Notes: generated from the letters alone by a model not told the origin. Counted from the first letter of the stretch, positions 25,732 through 33,206 are shown. The stretch is DNA of 64,000 bases from Escherichia coli (GCF_013122565.1 NZ_CP053258.1); one strand, 5' to 3'. Made by a program: numbers and translations.

Positions 25732-26841
25732 ATGAAACGGAATGCGAAAACTATCATCGCAGGGATGATTGCACTGGCAATTTCACACACCGCTATAGCT
25801 GACGATATTAAAGTCGCCGTTGTCGGCGCGATGTCCGGCCCGATTGCCCAGTGGGGCGATATGGAATTTAACGGCGCGCGTCAGGCGATTAAAGACATTA
25901 ATGCCAAAGGGGGAATTAAGGGCGACAAGCTGGTGGGCGTGGAATATGACGACGCCTGCGACCCGAAACAAGCCGTTGCGGTCGCCAACAAAATCGTTAA
26001 CGACGGCATTAAATACGTTATTGGTCATCTGTGTTCTTCTTCTACCCAACCTGCATCAGATATTTACGAAGACGAAGGTATTCTGATGATCTCGCCGGGA
26101 GCGACCAACCCGGAGCTGACTCAACGCGGTTATCAACACATTATGCGTACTGCCGGGCTGGACTCTTCCCAGGGGCCAACGGCGGCAAAATACATTCTTG
26201 AGACGGTGAAGCCCCAGCGCATCGCCATCATTCACGACAAACAACAGTATGGCGAAGGGCTGGCACGTTCGGTGCAGGACGGGCTGAAAGCGGCTAACGC
26301 CAACGTCGTCTTCTTCGACGGCATTACCGCTGGCGAGAAAGATTTCTCCGCGCTGATCGCCCGCCTGAAAAAAGAAAACATCGACTTCGTTTATTACGGC
26401 GGTTACTACCCGGAAATGGGGCAGATGCTGCGCCAGGCCCGTTCCGTTGGCCTGAAAACCCAGTTTATGGGGCCGGAAGGTGTGGGTAATGCGTCGCTGT
26501 CGAATATTGCTGGCGATGCTGCCGAAGGCATGTTGGTCACTATGCCAAAACGCTATGACCAGGATCCGGCAAACAAAGGCATCGTTGATGCGCTGAAAGC
26601 AGACAAGAAAGATCCGTCCGGGCCTTATGTTTGGATCACTTATGCGGCGGTGCAATCTCTGGCGACTGCCCTTGAGCGTACCGGCAGCGATGAGCCGCTG
26701 GCGCTGGTGAAAGATTTAAAAGCTAACGGTGCAAACACCGTGATTGGGCCGCTGAACTGGGATGAAAAAGGCGATCTTAAGGGATTTGATTTTGGTGTCT
26801 TCCAGTGGCACGCCGACGGTTCATCCACGGCAGCCAAGTGA
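25732..26841 (+). CDS. livK: Periplasmic leucine-specific binding protein LivK
   Basis: 369 aa from the MKRNAK Met with signal peptide. Confidence 0.92.
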
Positions 26842-26849
26842 TCATCCCA

Positions 26850-26874
26850 CCGCCCGTGAAATGCGGGCGGGTTT
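26850..26874 (+). terminator. Hairpin after livK (ccgcccg...cgggcgg), possible attenuating terminator
   Basis: Inverted repeat followed by a short T-run. Confidence 0.4.
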
Positions 26875-26888
26875 AGAAAGGTTACCTT

Positions 26889-27815
26889 ATGTCTGAGCAG
26901 TTTTTATATTTCTTGCAGCAGATGTTTAACGGCGTCACGCTGGGCAGTACCTACGCGCTGATAGCCATCGGCTACACCATGGTTTACGGCATTATCGGCA
27001 TGATCAACTTCGCCCACGGCGAGGTTTACATGATCGGCAGCTACGTCTCATTTATGATCATCGCCGCACTGATGATGCTGGGCATTGATACCGGCTGGCT
27101 GCTGGTGGCGGCGGGATTCGTCGGCGCAATCGTCATCGCCAGCGCCTACGGCTGGAGTATCGAACGGGTGGCCTATCGCCCGGTGCGCAACTCCAAGCGC
27201 CTGATTGCGCTCATCTCGGCAATCGGTATGTCCATCTTCCTGCAAAACTACGTCAGCCTGACCGAAGGTTCGCGCGACGTGGCGCTGCCGAGCCTGTTTA
27301 ACGGGCAGTGGGTGGTGGGCCATAGCGAAAACTTCTCTGCCTCTATTACCACCATGCAGGCGGTGATCTGGATTGTTACTTTCCTCGCCATGCTGGCGCT
27401 GACGATTTTCATTCGTTATTCCCGTATGGGGCGCGCCTGCCGTGCCTGCGCGGAAGATCTGAAAATGGCGAGTCTGCTTGGCATTAACACCGACCGGGTG
27501 ATTGCGCTGACCTTTGTGATTGGTGCGGCGATGGCGGCGGTGGCGGGCGTACTGCTCGGTCAGTTCTACGGTGTGATTAACCCCTATATCGGCTTTATGG
27601 CCGGGATGAAAGCCTTTACCGCTGCGGTGCTCGGTGGGATTGGCAGCATTCCGGGAGCGATGATTGGCGGGCTGATCCTGGGGATTGCGGAGGCGCTCTC
27701 TTCTGCCTATCTGAGTACGGAATATAAAGATGTGGTCTCATTCGCCCTGCTGATCCTGGTGCTGTTGGTGATGCCGACCGGTATTCTGGGTCGCCCGGAG
27801 GTAGAGAAAGTATGA
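26889..27815 (+). CDS. livH: Branched-chain amino-acid ABC permease LivH
   Basis: 308 aa multi-TM permease. Confidence 0.93.
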
Positions 27816-29089
27816 AACCGATGCATATTGCAATGGCGCTGCTCTCTGCCGCGATGTTTTTTGTCCTGGCGGGCGTCTTTATGGGCGTGCAACTGGAGCT
27901 GGATGGCACCAAACTGGTGGTCGATAGCGCTTCGGATGTCCGTTGGCAGTGGGTGTTTATCGGCACGGCGGTGGTCTTTTTCTTCCAGCTTTTGCGACCG
28001 GCTTTCCAGAAAGGGCTGAAAAGCGTTTCCGGACCGAAGTTTATTCTGCCCGCGATTGATGGCTCCACGGTGAAACAGAAACTGTTCCTCGTGGCGCTGT
28101 TGGTGCTTGCGGTGGCGTGGCCGTTTATGGTGTCGCGCGGGACGGTGGATATCGCCACCCTGACCATGATCTACATTATCCTCGGCCTCGGGCTGAACGT
28201 GGTTGTTGGTCTTTCTGGTCTGCTGGTGCTGGGGTACGGCGGCTTTTACGCCATCGGCGCTTACACCTTTGCGCTGCTCAATCACTATTACGGCCTGGGC
28301 TTCTGGACCTGTCTGCCGATTGCCGGGTTAATGGCAGCGGCGGCGGGCTTCCTGCTCGGCTTCCCGGTGTTGCGTTTACGTGGCGACTATCTGGCGATCG
28401 TTACCCTCGGTTTCGGCGAAATTGTGCGCATATTGCTGCTCAATAACACTGAAATCACCGGTGGCCCGAACGGAATTAGTCAGATCCCGAAACCGACTTT
28501 CTTCGGCCTCGAGTTCAGCCGTACCGCCCGCGAAGGCGGCTGGGACACGTTCAGTAATTTCTTTGGCCTGAAATACGATCCCTCCGATCGCGTTATCTTC
28601 CTGTACCTGGTGGCGTTGCTGCTGGTGGTATTAAGCCTGTTTGTCATTAACCGCCTGCTGCGGATGCCGCTGGGCCGTGCGTGGGAAGCGTTGCGTGAAG
28701 ACGAGATCGCCTGCCGTTCGCTGGGCTTAAGCCCGCGTCGTATCAAGCTGACTGCCTTTACCATCAGCGCCGCGTTTGCCGGTTTTGCCGGAACGCTGTT
28801 TGCGGCGCGTCAGGGCTTTGTCAGCCCGGAATCCTTCACCTTTGCTGAATCAGCCTTTGTGCTGGCGATAGTGGTGCTCGGCGGTATGGGCTCGCAATTT
28901 GCGGTAATTCTGGCGGCAATTTTGCTGGTGGTGTCGCGCGAATTGATGCGTGATTTCAACGAATACAGCATGTTAATGCTCGGTGGTTTGATGGTGCTGA
29001 TGATGATCTGGCGTCCGCAGGGCTTGCTGCCCATGACGCGCCCGCAACTCAAGCTGAAAAACGGCGCAGCAAAAGGAGAGCAGGCATGA
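27812..29089 (+). CDS. livM: Branched-chain amino-acid ABC permease LivM
   Basis: 425 aa multi-TM permease; overlaps livH and livG. Confidence 0.93.
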
Positions 29090-29853
29090 GTCAGCCATTA
29101 TTATCTGTTAACGGTCTGATGATGCGCTTCGGCGGCCTGCTGGCGGTGAACAACGTCAATCTTGAGCTGTACCCGCAGGAGATCGTCTCGTTAATCGGCC
29201 CTAACGGTGCCGGAAAAACCACGGTTTTTAACTGTCTGACCGGATTCTACAAACCCACCGGCGGCACCATTTTACTGCGCGATCAGCACCTGGAAGGTTT
29301 ACCGGGGCAGCAAATTGCCCGCATGGGCGTGGTGCGCACCTTCCAGCATGTGCGTCTGTTCCGTGAAATGACGGTAATTGAAAACCTGCTGGTGGCACAG
29401 CATCAGCAACTGAAAACCGGGCTGTTCTCTGGCCTGTTGAAAACGCCTTCTTTCCGTCGCGCCCAGAGCGAAGCGCTCGACCGCGCCGCCACCTGGCTTG
29501 AGCGCATTGGTTTGCTGGAACACGCCAACCGTCAGGCGAGCAACCTGGCCTATGGCGACCAGCGTCGTCTGGAGATCGCCCGCTGCATGGTGACGCAGCC
29601 GGAGATTTTAATGCTCGACGAACCGGCAGCGGGTCTTAACCCGAAAGAGACGAAAGAGCTGGATGAGCTGATTGCCGAACTGCGTAACCATCACAACACC
29701 ACTATCTTGTTGATTGAACACGATATGAAGCTGGTGATGGGGATTTCAGACAGAATTTACGTGGTCAACCAGGGGACGCCGCTGGCAAACGGTACGCCGG
29801 AGCAGATCCGTAATAACCCGGACGTGATCCGTGCCTATTTAGGTGAGGCATAA
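29086..29853 (+). CDS. livG: Branched-chain amino-acid ABC ATPase LivG
   Basis: 255 aa, Walker [10 protein letters not shown]. Confidence 0.93.
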
Positions 29854-29854
29854 G

Positions 29855-30568
29855 ATGGAAAAAGTCATGTTGTCCTTTGACAAAGTCAGCGCCCACTACG
29901 GTAAAATCCAGGCGCTGCATGAGGTGAGCCTGCATATCAATCAGGGCGAGATTGTTACCCTGATTGGCGCGAACGGGGCGGGAAAAACCACCTTGCTCGG
30001 CACATTATGCGGCGATCCGCGCGCCACCAGCGGGCGAATTGTGTTTGATGATAAAGACATTACCGACTGGCAGACGGCGAAAATCATGCGCGAAGCGGTA
30101 GCGATTGTCCCGGAAGGGCGTCGCGTCTTCTCGCGCATGACGGTGGAAGAGAATCTGGCGATGGGCGGCTTTTTTGCCGAACGCGACCAGTTTCAGGAGC
30201 GCATAAAGTGGGTATATGAACTGTTTCCACGTCTGCATGAGCGCCGTGTTCAGCGGGCAGGCACCATGTCCGGCGGTGAGCAGCAGATGCTGGCGATTGG
30301 TCGCGCGCTGATGAGCAATCCGCGTTTGTTGTTACTTGATGAGCCATCGCTCGGTCTTGCGCCGATTATCATCCAGCAAATTTTCGACACCATCGAGCAG
30401 CTGCGCGAGCAGGGGATGACTATCTTCCTCGTCGAGCAGAACGCCAACCAGGCGCTGAAGCTGGCGGATCGCGGCTACGTGCTGGAAAACGGTCATGTGG
30501 TGCTTTCCGATACCGGCGACGCGCTACTGGCGAACGAAGCGGTGAGAAGCGCGTATTTGGGCGGGTGA
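29855..30568 (+). CDS. livF: Branched-chain amino-acid ABC ATPase LivF
   Basis: 237 aa from the MEKVML Met, Walker A GANGAGKTT. Confidence 0.93.
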   Translation: MEKVMLSFDKVSAHYGKIQALHEVSLHINQGEIVTLIGANGAGKTTLLGTLCGDPRATSGRIVFDDKDITDWQTAKIMREAVAIVPEGRRVFSRMTVEENLAMGGFFAERDQFQERIKWVYELFPRLHERRVQRAGTMSGGEQQMLAIGRALMSNPRLLLLDEPSLGLAPIIIQQIFDTIEQLREQGMTIFLVEQNANQALKLADRGYVLENGHVVLSDTGDALLANEAVRSAYLGG

Positions 30569-30686
30569 TTTATCAATAACCCGGCAGCTAAGTTCTGCCG
30601 GGTTATTTGTCTGTATACAGACTTGTTTCAACTGACCGGGAGGATTAAAAACTGTCCACTTATTTGCCACGGAAAGGTTCCCTCCC

Positions 30687-31433
30687 ATGCATTATGCCGT
30701 TGTCGCCATGCTTGAAATGCTTTGCTGTATCCACGCTTACCGTACCGGACAAGAGCGATATTGGTTTTTTATCATCTTCTGTTTTCCAGTGATTGGCTGC
30801 GTAGCGTATTTTGTCATGGTGATGCTGCCAGAAACGGGCGCTGACCGTCACGGGCGTACCTTTCTGATGCGCCTGCAGAACAAACTCAACCCTGAGCGCC
30901 ACCTGCGCAAATTAACCGAAGAACTGGCGATTGCCGAGACGAATCAAAACCATTATGCGTTGGCTAATGAACTGGCGCGTCTGGGGCGTTATCACGAAGC
31001 CGTTCCCCATTATCAGCAGGCGTTAAGCGGGATATTCGCCCATGAAGCGGCAATGATGCTAAGCCTGGCGCAGGCACAGTTTGCTATTCAGGAGTTTGCC
31101 GCCTGTCAGCAGACGCTGGAAGATGTGATGCGTTATAACCCTGATTTTCAGTCGGCAGACGGGCATTTGTTATTTGCCAGAACGTTAGCCGCACAAGAAA
31201 AATACGCTGATGCGGAAAGTGAGTTTGAAGTGTTGGTTTCTTATTACCCCGGCCCGCAGGCGCGTATTTACTATGCGGAAATGCTGGCGAAAATGAGTCG
31301 GTTACGTGAAGCCAACGAGCAGTATGTTGCTGTAGTTGATACGGCTAAACGCTCAAGACCTCATTATAGAAAACACCACCGGGAATGGATTAAGACCGCC
31401 AATGAACGGTTGAAGCAGAGTGTGGTGCAATGA
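30687..31433 (+). CDS. Hypothetical membrane protein: N-terminal PLDc_N-like two-TM domain plus cytoplasmic helical (TPR-like) repeat domain
   Basis: 248-aa ORF; N-terminus YWFFIIFCFPVIGCVAYFVMV resembles the PLD-nuclease N-terminal domain family; C-terminus predicted helical. Confidence 0.55.
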   Translation: MHYAVVAMLEMLCCIHAYRTGQERYWFFIIFCFPVIGCVAYFVMVMLPETGADRHGRTFLMRLQNKLNPERHLRKLTEELAIAETNQNHYALANELARLGRYHEAVPHYQQALSGIFAHEAAMMLSLAQAQFAIQEFAACQQTLEDVMRYNPDFQSADGHLLFARTLAAQEKYADAESEFEVLVSYYPGPQARIYYAEMLAKMSRLREANEQYVAVVDTAKRSRPHYRKHHREWIKTANERLKQSVVQ

Positions 31434-31654
31434 AAATCTTCTTTGCCGTTAGGCCAGTGTCGCGGCAATCTTTTGTTAAAATTGAAAAATGTAGCTTTCA
31501 TCGGGCAGCAAAACTGGACGCAGAATTTGCTGCCATTTTTGCTCTTCATGGTAAGGAGTTCTGGCGATTAGCTGGCCGTTAATCGCCTCTTTTCAGTGCA
31601 TTCTCGGGATATCCGTGCCCCATCTCCCATTTTCCCTCACCCGTACCGTCACCG

Positions 31655-31735
31655 CCTTGTCATCTTTCTGACACCTTACTATCTTACAAATGTAACAAAA
31701 AAGTTATTTTTCTGTAATTCGAGCATGTCATGTTA
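31655..31735 (+). promoter_or_regulatory. ugpB promoter region with Pho-box-like repeats
   Basis: cttgtcatctttctgacacc and ctgtaattcgagcatgtcatg resemble the PhoB consensus CTGTCAT-N4-CTGTCAT. Confidence 0.5.
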
Positions 31736-31792
31736 CCCCGCGAGCATAAAACGCGTGAATTCGCGCATTCGGTACAACAAGAGAGATAAACG

Positions 31793-33109
31793 ATGAAACC
31801 GTTACATTATACAGCTTCAGCACTGGCGCTCGGACTGGCGTTAATGGGGAATGCACAGGCAGTGACGACCATTCCGTTCTGGCATTCTATGGAAGGGGAA
31901 CTGGGTAAAGAGGTGGATTCTCTGGCCCAACGTTTTAACGCCGAAAACCCGGATTACAAAATTGTACCGACCTATAAAGGCAACTACGAACAGAATTTAA
32001 GCGCGGGGATTGCCGCATTTCGTACTGGCAACGCTCCGGCTATTTTGCAGGTTTATGAAGTTGGCACCGCCACCATGATGGCATCCAAAGCCATTAAACC
32101 GGTATATGACGTGTTTAAAGAGGCGGGGATTCAATTCGATGAGTCGCAGTTTGTGCCGACGGTTTCCGGTTACTACTCCGACAGCAAAACGGGCCACTTA
32201 CTCTCCCAGCCGTTCAACAGCTCGACTCCCGTTCTCTATTACAACAAAGACGCCTTCAAGAAAGCGGGGTTAGACCCGGAACAGCCGCCGAAAACCTGGC
32301 AGGATCTGGCGGACTATGCCGCAAAACTGAAAGCCTCCGGAATGAAGTGCGGCTACGCCAGCGGCTGGCAGGGCTGGATCCAACTGGAAAACTTTAGCGC
32401 CTGGAACGGTCTGCCGTTTGCCAGCAAAAACAACGGCTTTGACGGCACGGATGCGGTGCTGGAGTTCAACAAGCCGGAGCAGGTGAAACACATCGCCATG
32501 CTCGAAGAGATGAACAAGAAGGGCGATTTCAGCTACGTCGGGCGTAAGGATGAATCCACCGAGAAGTTCTATAACGGTGATTGCGCGATGACCACCGCCT
32601 CTTCCGGTTCTCTCGCTAATATTCGTGAGTACGCCAAATTTAACTATGGCGTAGGCATGATGCCTTACGACGCCGATGCGAAAGATGCACCGCAAAACGC
32701 CATTATCGGCGGGGCCAGCCTGTGGGTGATGCAGGGCAAAGATAAAGAAACGTATACCGGCGTGGCGAAGTTCCTCGACTTCCTCGCGAAGCCAGAAAAC
32801 GCTGCCGAGTGGCATCAGAAAACCGGTTATCTGCCAATCACCAAAGCAGCGTATGACCTGACCCGTGAGCAGGGCTTTTATGAGAAAAACCCAGGGGCGG
32901 ATACCGCGACGCGTCAGATGCTGAACAAGCCGCCGTTGCCGTTCACCAAAGGGCTGCGTCTGGGCAACATGCCGCAGACCCGCGTGATTGTGGATGAAGA
33001 GCTGGAGAGCGTGTGGACCGGTAAGAAGACACCACAGCAGGCACTGGATACCGCCGTTGAGCGTGGGAACCAGTTACTGCGCCGCTTTGAGCAGTCTACG
33101 AAGTCTTAA
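31793..33109 (+). CDS. ugpB: Periplasmic sn-glycerol-3-phosphate-binding protein UgpB
   Basis: 438 aa with signal peptide. Confidence 0.93.
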
Positions 33110-33116
33110 TCAGTGT

Positions 33117-33188
33117 AATGTCGGATGCGTTTCGCTTATCTGACCTGGCATCGCGTGTAGGCCGGATAAGCGAAGCGCATCCGGCACA
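33117..33188. repeat. REP-type palindromic element between ugpB and ugpA
   Basis: gtaggccggataagcgaagcgcatccggca read directly. Confidence 0.65.
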
Positions 33189-33206
33189 GTTCAGGAATTA
33201 ACCGTA

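Follow-up and report, generated by a model that had tools for sequence, protein, structure and literature searches.

A conserved gene for a predicted membrane-hairpin TPR protein at the livF-ugpB junction of Escherichia coli and its apparent loss from K-12-type strains

The spacer between livF and ugpB in the Escherichia coli DNA analysed here carries a real, intact, chromosomal gene under purifying selection. Its 248-aa product belongs to a widespread proteobacterial family of ~245-aa proteins, each composed of a PLDc_N-type hairpin, a short basic linker and about four tetratricopeptide repeats (TPRs). Comparison of alleles indicates that the gene is ancestral at this junction in the Escherichia/Citrobacter lineage, and that K-12, Nissle and most E. 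coli carry an allele from which the gene and its own signals were deleted, with REP elements now in their place. Taken jointly, we hold these conclusions on identity and evolution with high confidence. The overall explanation that we favor, in which a selected ancestral gene would supply a TPR scaffold held at the inner membrane and facing the cytoplasm, is in our judgment moderately likely.

An intact gene under selection in the livF-ugpB spacer

The window, meaning the whole stretch of DNA that was analysed, comprises 64,000 nucleotides of E. coli sequence (GCF_013122565.1, NZ_CP053258.1; one strand, 5′ to 3′). Within it, the 1224 bp between the end of livF (30568) and the start of ugpB (31793), positions 30569-31792, constitute the whole intergenic spacer, which holds a single long ORF with an ATG start. 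The corresponding spacer of K-12 MG1655 (NC_000913.3) measures 398 bp, has no such gene, and shares with the window spacer only its terminal 183 bp, the ugpB promoter. K-12 and the window are identical at 191 of the 199 columns of the promoter-proximal alignment block, which extends slightly beyond both ends of the 183-bp match. A first-pass annotation of this DNA had proposed a 248-aa ORF with a plausible ribosome-binding site in the spacer, put the K-12 spacer at ~0.4 kb, and described the Pho-box promoter of ugpB as intact downstream. All three statements agree with the comparison and with the features listed here: GGAAAGG precedes the ORF, the MG1655 spacer lacks the ORF at the same position, and the retained promoter region contains a Pho-box-like TTGTCATCTTTCTGACAC at 31657-31674.

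30569..31609 (+): haplotype-specific segment of 1041 bp, in place of which K-12-type strains have ~215 bp of hairpin and REP sequence
30575..30607 (+): liv operon terminator hairpin with a 13-bp stem, AACCCGGCAG...CUGCCGGGUU, then UUAUUUGU
30609..30622 (+): perfect 14-bp palindrome GTCTGTATACAGAC, folding into a small second hairpin
30617..30649 (+): conserved upstream block ACAGACTTGTTTCA ... GGAGGATTAAA, from an alignment of upstream regions
30671..30677 (+): Shine-Dalgarno-like GGAAAGG, 9 nt upstream of the ATG
30687..31433 (+): CDS of the PLDc_N hairpin and TPR protein, 248 aa, exact protein WP_171460221.1
31504..31534 (+): first terminator-like hairpin of the 3′ tail, GGCAGCAAA...UUUGCUGCC, then AUUUUUGC
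31563..31587 (+): second terminator-like hairpin, GGCGAUUAGC...GUUAAUCGCC, then UCUUUUC, from a terminator scan
31610..31792 (+): ugpB promoter region, common to all E. coli and outside the variable segment

RNA folding of positions 30569-30630 gives −26.4 kcal/mol (z = −6.6) for the liv terminator hairpin, which is conserved in other gene-bearing alleles; the palindrome that follows it is imperfect in other alleles (GTCCGTATACAGAC). The upstream block is kept from Escherichia as far as Citrobacter freundii and is a candidate non-canonical promoter. A sigma-70 promoter scan of 30569-30686 found no consensus site upstream of the ATG, and readings of the block as a sigma-E, sigma-32, sigma-54, LexA or Pho-box element were judged by eye, with none fitting. 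The GGAAAGG element is conserved in Escherichia and C. freundii, and as the Shine-Dalgarno sequence of the TPR gene it was graded weak.

On the 3′ side, a 3′ UTR is the better reading of the 176-bp tail (31434-31609), which contains two terminator hairpins, the first folding at −17.4 kcal/mol (z = −3.4) and the second at −16.5 kcal/mol. Other readings of this DNA were tried and rejected. In Escherichia sp. MOD1-EC7003 the TPR gene is followed by a 231-aa gene, and the tail has no similarity to it that would mark a remnant. An overlapping 50-aa ORF (31430-31582) is open in five alleles, but other functional alleles are without the whole tail. No known RNA element lies behind the extra DNA according to an Rfam scan of 30400-31900, which had no matches at E ≤ 1.

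The window protein is identical to the E. coli entry WP_171460221.1 / QJU26548.1, annotated as 'tetratricopeptide repeat protein'. Comparison with seven other Escherichia alleles gives dN/dS values of 0.07-0.12 at dS values of up to 0.42, and the GC content of the gene (0.50) is host-like. The ORF is intact in all other inspected alleles of E. coli and cryptic-clade Escherichia, and every sampled E. coli allele is annotated as a CDS, under the RefSeq names 'tetratricopeptide repeat protein' or 'hypothetical protein'. The sole broken copy among the inspected Escherichia alleles is that of E. albertii NBRC 107761, which has a frameshift. This frameshifted copy, together with the absence of the gene from 88% of E. 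coli, the weak Shine-Dalgarno sequence and the lack of a consensus promoter upstream, could be taken to mean that the ORF is decaying or non-functional and heading for loss. We consider this highly improbable, because dN/dS stays this low although dS reaches 0.42, because all sampled E. coli alleles are intact and annotated, and because the architecture is kept across hundreds of distant clusters.

Ancestry at the locus and the K-12-type allele

The segment 30569-31609 is carried by 659 of 5426 complete E. coli genomes (12%; 658 at ≥80% coverage), always in single copy and always on the chromosome, and its carriers include O157:H7, O55:H7 and O145. In Escherichia sp. E1V33, E. whittamii, E. 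albertii and Escherichia sp. MOD1-EC7003 the gene likewise comes immediately after livF, and it also occupies the site downstream of livF in cryptic Escherichia clades, Citrobacter and Pseudocitrobacter. In C. freundii the orthologue follows livF and precedes ugpB, with two small ORFs and a Phd/Doc pair lying between the orthologue and ugpB.

The gene-less allele is a single haplotype, composed of a different hairpin and two REP elements, and its copies in K-12 (phylogroup A) and Nissle (B2) are 98% identical. E. albertii provides an intermediate: the first ~80 nt past its gene are 71-77% identical to the 3′ tail of the window, and over the next ~145 columns, one REP included, identity to the right-hand half of the K-12 spacer is 82-90%. 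Because this arrangement links both alleles, the K-12 allele, which retains DNA related to the 3′ flank of the gene, is derived from the gene-bearing one by deletion. The first-pass annotation had called the gene extra, which is accurate relative to K-12; it is not an addition, however, but an ancestral gene lost from K-12-type strains, so that the direction of the event is corrected from a gain here to a loss in K-12. The description of the product as an accessory membrane-associated protein of unknown function fared similarly. A membrane hairpin is indeed predicted and functional annotation is indeed lacking, but the gene is ancestral rather than accessory.

The same annotation had suggested that such a protein might be an abortive-infection factor. 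A single-gene anti-phage or abortive-infection factor, gained as an accessory gene, would agree with the patchy presence in E. coli (12%) and with the variability of the spacer, where Citrobacter has the Phd/Doc toxin-antitoxin pair and one Escherichia lineage has IS200-like DNA. Searches of defence and mobile-element collections point the other way. PADLOC returned 0 families at E ≤ 1, PHROGs gave nothing significant (one family at E = 0.21), and tblastn against 50,697 phage records found no copy. Of the five matches obtained from 72,556 plasmid records, four are on replicons of 1.6-2.3 Mb (megaplasmids or chromids) from Ralstonia and Methylobacterium and the fifth is a partial match on a 373-kb Comamonas plasmid. 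The gene keeps a syntenic position across genera with the liv and ugp core operons as its flanks, has host-like GC and a dN/dS of ~0.1, and belongs to a family that is single-copy, of fixed length and accompanied by housekeeping neighbours in many clades. The missing defence and phage matches, the synteny, the host-like composition and the purifying selection leave the abortive-infection idea without support, and we reject it as very unlikely to be correct. The results speak neither for nor against the envelope-stress role that the annotation had also suggested.

The gene is a stand-alone unit. ORF calling and clustering were run on 85 loci, and with a GC3 filter applied against antisense ORFs in high-GC genomes, the flanking ORFs of 80 loci yielded no neighbour family common to different clades. 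Luteimonas has AccA and TilS as conserved neighbours, Pseudomonas has LOG with MscS or PnuC, and Bradyrhizobium has an EamA transporter. These within-clade neighbours bear no relation to each other, and naming them with NCBIfam brought out no common theme.

Family and domain architecture

A profile search of 1.84 billion cluster representatives identified 688 family members (50%-identity clusters) at E ≤ 1e-30, and nearly all of the best 150 of these 688 are 240-255 aa long and matched over positions 1-245. A word-seeded search likewise returned full-length relatives, all of 243-258 aa, at identities down to 32%. Identity to the window protein is 94% in E. fergusonii, 65-77% in Citrobacter, ~43% in Pseudomonas and 37% in Exilibacterium. 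Genome and structure searches add Xanthomonadales, Thiotrichaceae, Xenorhabdus, Gilliamella, Bradyrhizobium, Rhodopseudomonas, Maricaulis, Ralstonia and Methylobacterium, so that the family extends over Gamma-, Alpha- and Betaproteobacteria; no representative from Salmonella, Klebsiella or Enterobacter was present among the family matches found. Foldseek TM-scores against AFDB relatives are 0.7-0.95. The window protein is homologous to this PLDc_N-TPR family from end to end, with the same length and architecture, and orthologues are recorded as WP_000558842.1 (O157:H7) and A0AAD2SG93 (Citrobacter). Our literature search found no paper that mentions the window protein and no functional study of any family member.

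The protein is divided into three parts:

30690..30827 (+): two-helix membrane hairpin, residues 2-47, with AF2 helices 2-20 and 25-51
30828..30941 (+): basic linker, residues 48-85, with an amphipathic helix (54-67), a D/N-P-E-R turn (P69) and a lead-in helix (71-82)
30942..31427 (+): TPR-like domain, residues 86-247, with about four helix pairs and a capping helix

The AF2 model, built on a 25-sequence alignment (pLDDT 88.6, pTM 0.70), places the hairpin first, then a less confident basic linker that includes helix 54-67, and then 9-10 helices across residues 71-247 with pLDDT >90. The anatomy proposed in the first-pass annotation is thereby confirmed, including a helical, TPR-like remainder, which also has Pfam TPR matches (TPR_19, 2.5e-6; TPR_2 and TPR_1, ~1e-4). 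At least three tandem helix-turn-helix repeats of ~34 residues are recognized by both profile and fold. A subfamily motif, NPDFxSADGHLL(Y/F)AR at residues 151-165, is common to the closer relatives. Over 173 sequences, the conserved positions of the TPR domain are for the most part Ala, Leu, Gly and Pro residues with a structural role in the repeat, and hence no partner-binding surface can be singled out. An NCBIfam scan gave only sub-threshold generic TPR matches and no curated family, the best being the YbgF TPR at 31 bits, far under its cut-off. A sequence-profile search of the PDB recovered generic or designed TPRs and PA4667 only, with no solved relative.

Helix 2 of the hairpin is strongly hydrophobic, with a 19-residue Kyte-Doolittle mean of up to 2.6. 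Helix 1 reaches 1.8 over 15 residues and is marginally hydrophobic in the E. coli protein, where no 19-residue window exceeds 1.6, and it carries a conserved Q/E mid-helix. Residues 26-42 contain the motif W-x-FIIFCFPVIGC-x-YF, from which the first-pass annotation had drawn the likeness to PLDc_N. For the single sequence the match is weak: Pfam PLDc_N (PF13396) aligns with residues 26-43 at E = 0.0099 (16.3 bits), which is sub-threshold and covers model positions 22-39 only. The likeness stands at the level of the family, where the evidence supports a PLDc_N-type assignment of the hairpin. PF13396 matches 13 of 25 relatives at E ≤ 0.1 and 5 of 25 at E ≤ 1e-3 (best 2.2e-5), and several relatives are already named 'Cardiolipin synthase N-terminal domain-containing protein' in UniProt. 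An hhalign comparison of the family profile with residues 37-61 of E. coli ClsA aligned 25 columns (E = 0.0013, at a low probability of 18.6%), in a register that sets W26, P34, G37 and Y41 opposite the W, P, G and Y of ClsA WLLIIYILPLVGIIAY.

The same residues are among the most conserved in the family (173 sequences: H16, 98%; W26, 99%; P34, 93%; G37, 99%; Y41, 99%; P48, 97%; P69, 95%), and conservation is strongest in the membrane domain and the linker rather than across the surface of the TPR domain. Since the hairpin is where conservation is highest, it probably does more than anchor the protein, for example as a recognition element for lipid or for a partner.

Similarity to TIGR04265 is confined to residues 24-57, that is, to the N-terminal hairpin (E = 0.11). 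We considered whether the protein might be a cardiolipin synthase or another enzyme of the PLD superfamily, which requires two HKD (HxKxxxxD) motifs. It has no PLDc Pfam match and ends at residue 248, after the TPR domain; lacking PLD/HKD domains, it is not an enzyme of the PLD family.

Predicted topology and comparison with known systems

Positive charges are distributed unevenly around the two helices. Over the family, K+R count is 0 at the N-terminus, averages 2.15 in the inter-helix loop and averages 4.05 in the 20 residues past helix 2 (residues 48-67), where the hydrophobic moment is 0.56-0.63. In bacterial cardiolipin synthases, two TM domains orient the enzymatic domain to the cytosol (PMC9499288). 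The charge pattern and this precedent together favor a topology in which both ends of the hairpin are in the cytoplasm. The hairpin would then insert in the cytoplasmic membrane in the manner of the cardiolipin synthase hairpin, the basic amphipathic helix 54-67 would rest on the inner leaflet, and the TPR domain, tethered to the membrane, would serve as a scaffold that binds a protein partner encoded at another locus. We advance this mechanism, a stand-alone inner-membrane TPR protein working in the cytoplasm, as a tentative proposal with slightly less than an even chance of being right. Two observations run against a cytoplasmic topology, namely that the inter-helix loop also has about two positive charges and that helix 1 is weakly hydrophobic.

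The main alternative places the TPR domain in the periplasm, either because helix 2 alone spans the membrane (N-in, C-out) or because the hairpin is oriented N-out/C-out, and would make the protein an adaptor in envelope assembly or stress, comparable to YfgM, CpoB/YbgF or NlpI. The R/K-rich loop ahead of the very hydrophobic helix 2 resembles the n-region of a signal anchor, helix 1 is weakly hydrophobic, and the top NCBIfam match is the YbgF TPR, though far under its cut-off. The doubled positive charge past helix 2 relative to the loop (4.05 vs 2.15) disfavors translocation, however, the domain that follows the homologous hairpin in cardiolipin synthases stays in the cytosol (PMC9499288), and the similarities to YbgF, YfgM and NlpI are generic TPR matches. 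A periplasmic TPR domain, in either orientation and in an adaptor role, thus seems to us unlikely, but a good deal less so than an anti-phage function.

A further possibility concerns lipids. The hairpin might pair with the hairpin of ClsA, or partition into anionic-lipid or cardiolipin-rich membrane, and so modulate cardiolipin synthesis or recruit a client to such domains. The W-x7-P-x2-G-x3-Y pattern is common to helix 2 of ClsA, the hairpin is the family's most conserved part, and the TM domain of Chlamydia Cls directs a restricted membrane localization that depends on anionic lipids (PMC9499288). That Chlamydia domain is a single short helix and not a PLDc_N hairpin, however, and the family shows no linkage to cls or other lipid genes except for accA in a few Luteimonas and Pseudoxanthomonas loci. 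We regard a lipid-linked regulator, and either effect ascribed to it, as doubtful, and more so than a periplasmic adaptor. Slightly more speculative still is the idea that the hairpin is the functional core of the protein, a module that recognizes either anionic or cardiolipin-rich membrane or the hairpin of ClsA. Were this true, the family would represent a hitherto unrecognized class of TPR scaffolds targeted to lipid domains, which would bring a cytoplasmic client to particular regions of the membrane or adjust cardiolipin synthesis, and presence or absence of the gene would be a natural polymorphism affecting E. coli membrane physiology, for example between O157:H7 and K-12.

The cytoplasmic-scaffold reading, which we prefer, can be set beside what is known. 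RefSeq and UniProt already record the ORF along with its position and domain content, as names only and with no functional annotation. The gene is ordinary as such, and the family is a conserved unknown of modest interest that escaped study because the laboratory strain K-12 carries the deletion allele.

Among TPR scaffolds with solved structures, MamA, YrrB, PilF, TTC0263, YbgF/CpoB and YfgM are only 10-21% identical to the window protein and have neither a PLDc_N hairpin nor the NPDFxSADGHLLYAR motif. A closer parallel in general design is E. coli LapB (YciM), which is anchored in the inner membrane and acts in the cytoplasm as the TPR adaptor coupling LpxC to FtsH; like the window protein, it has an N-terminal membrane anchor followed by TPR repeats, and one family relative is auto-named 'Lipopolysaccharide assembly protein B' in UniProt. 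LapB, however, is a protein of 389 aa whose single TM helix is followed by about nine TPRs and, at the C-terminus, a zinc domain of the rubredoxin type, whereas the window protein has 248 aa, a two-helix hairpin, about four TPRs and no C-terminal Cys cluster. Membership in the LapB/YciM group was rejected, since these defining features are absent and no LapB model appeared in the NCBIfam scan.

PLDc_N (PF13396) is a two-helix domain found in bacterial cardiolipin synthases (ClsA ~7-60) and in many small stand-alone membrane proteins. The window protein resembles it in having two N-terminal hydrophobic helices with a short basic loop between them, and resembles ClsA in carrying the W-x7-P-x2-G-x3-Y pattern of helix 2 in the same register. 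It departs from PLDc_N in that helix 1 of its family ends in an invariant His within H-x-x-(R/K)-T-G, and from the cardiolipin synthases in that its hairpin is followed by a TPR domain and not by PLD/HKD catalytic domains. Common as the PLDc_N domain is, we know of no established role for it even in cardiolipin synthases, and the function of a PLDc_N hairpin fused to TPRs would inform on the PLDc_N domain itself.

Gene content between the TPR gene and ugpB

The interval downstream of the TPR gene (window 30687-31433, + strand), which encodes a 248-aa protein with a PLDc_N hairpin and TPR repeats, was compared with the corresponding intervals of other genomes. The following features lie after the TPR gene or its orthologue:

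Citrobacter freundii, within locus L003 6850-8324, between the TPR orthologue and ugpB: two small unannotated ORFs of 93 and 135 aa
Citrobacter freundii, same interval: a PhdYeFM antitoxin / Fic-Doc toxin pair
Escherichia sp. MOD1-EC7003, within locus L009 5802-9847: a 231-aa ORF directly after the TPR gene, with an ATGA stop/start overlap
Escherichia sp. MOD1-EC7003, same interval: a 140-aa IS200-like transposase-like ORF, next after the 231-aa ORF

Based on the small ORFs and the toxin-antitoxin pair of Citrobacter, the livF-ugpB spacer is therefore a site of recurrent gene-content variation. In MOD1-EC7003 the IS200-like ORF is followed by genes that we take, by eye, to be yhhA-, yhhX- and yhhW-like, and the ugp operon appears to be absent from the position after the TPR gene.

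Sequences flanking the TPR gene

Two features border the gene in the window:

Window 30609-30622: perfect 14-bp palindrome GTCTGTATACAGAC, just 3′ of the liv terminator
Window 31430-31582: 50-aa ORF whose start overlaps the TPR gene stop codon (ATGA)

The 50-aa ORF is open in five E. coli alleles, and the entire 176-bp 3′ tail (31434-31609) is missing from other functional TPR alleles (L093, L008, L012). A blastn search of the ORF against the fetched loci matched nothing beyond this tail as carried by two further alleles, and the segment is probably a non-coding 3′ UTR. In the E. albertii type strain NBRC 107761, the TPR gene is followed by DNA that joins a window-type tail to a REP element of the K-12 type; the gene itself is frameshifted at about codon 186 (L013 6001-6760), and this copy is probably a pseudogene.

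The right half of the palindrome overlaps the conserved upstream block (30617-30649). All other aligned Escherichia alleles carry the imperfect form GTCCGTATACAGAC in its place, and the C. freundii sequence diverges further than this form. The palindrome could be an operator, or merely a second terminator hairpin.

Allelic diversity and divergence of the liv-ugp region

Comparison of the TPR gene with L092 and L093 revealed dS values between E. coli alleles of up to 0.23-0.30, and the short-tail arrangement typical of cryptic Escherichia clades was found in E. coli 2017-02-2CC (L093). Together these suggest an old polymorphism or inter-clade recombination at the locus. Among 5,426 complete RefSeq E. 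coli genomes, the top identity to the liv-ugp region (window 26000-33200) is 97.4%, and dS of the window livF is about 0.18-0.24 relative to K-12, O157 and Res13. Even so, the recorded species of the exact TPR protein (WP_171460221.1) is E. coli. From these comparisons, the source of the window seems to be a divergent or locally recombinant lineage.
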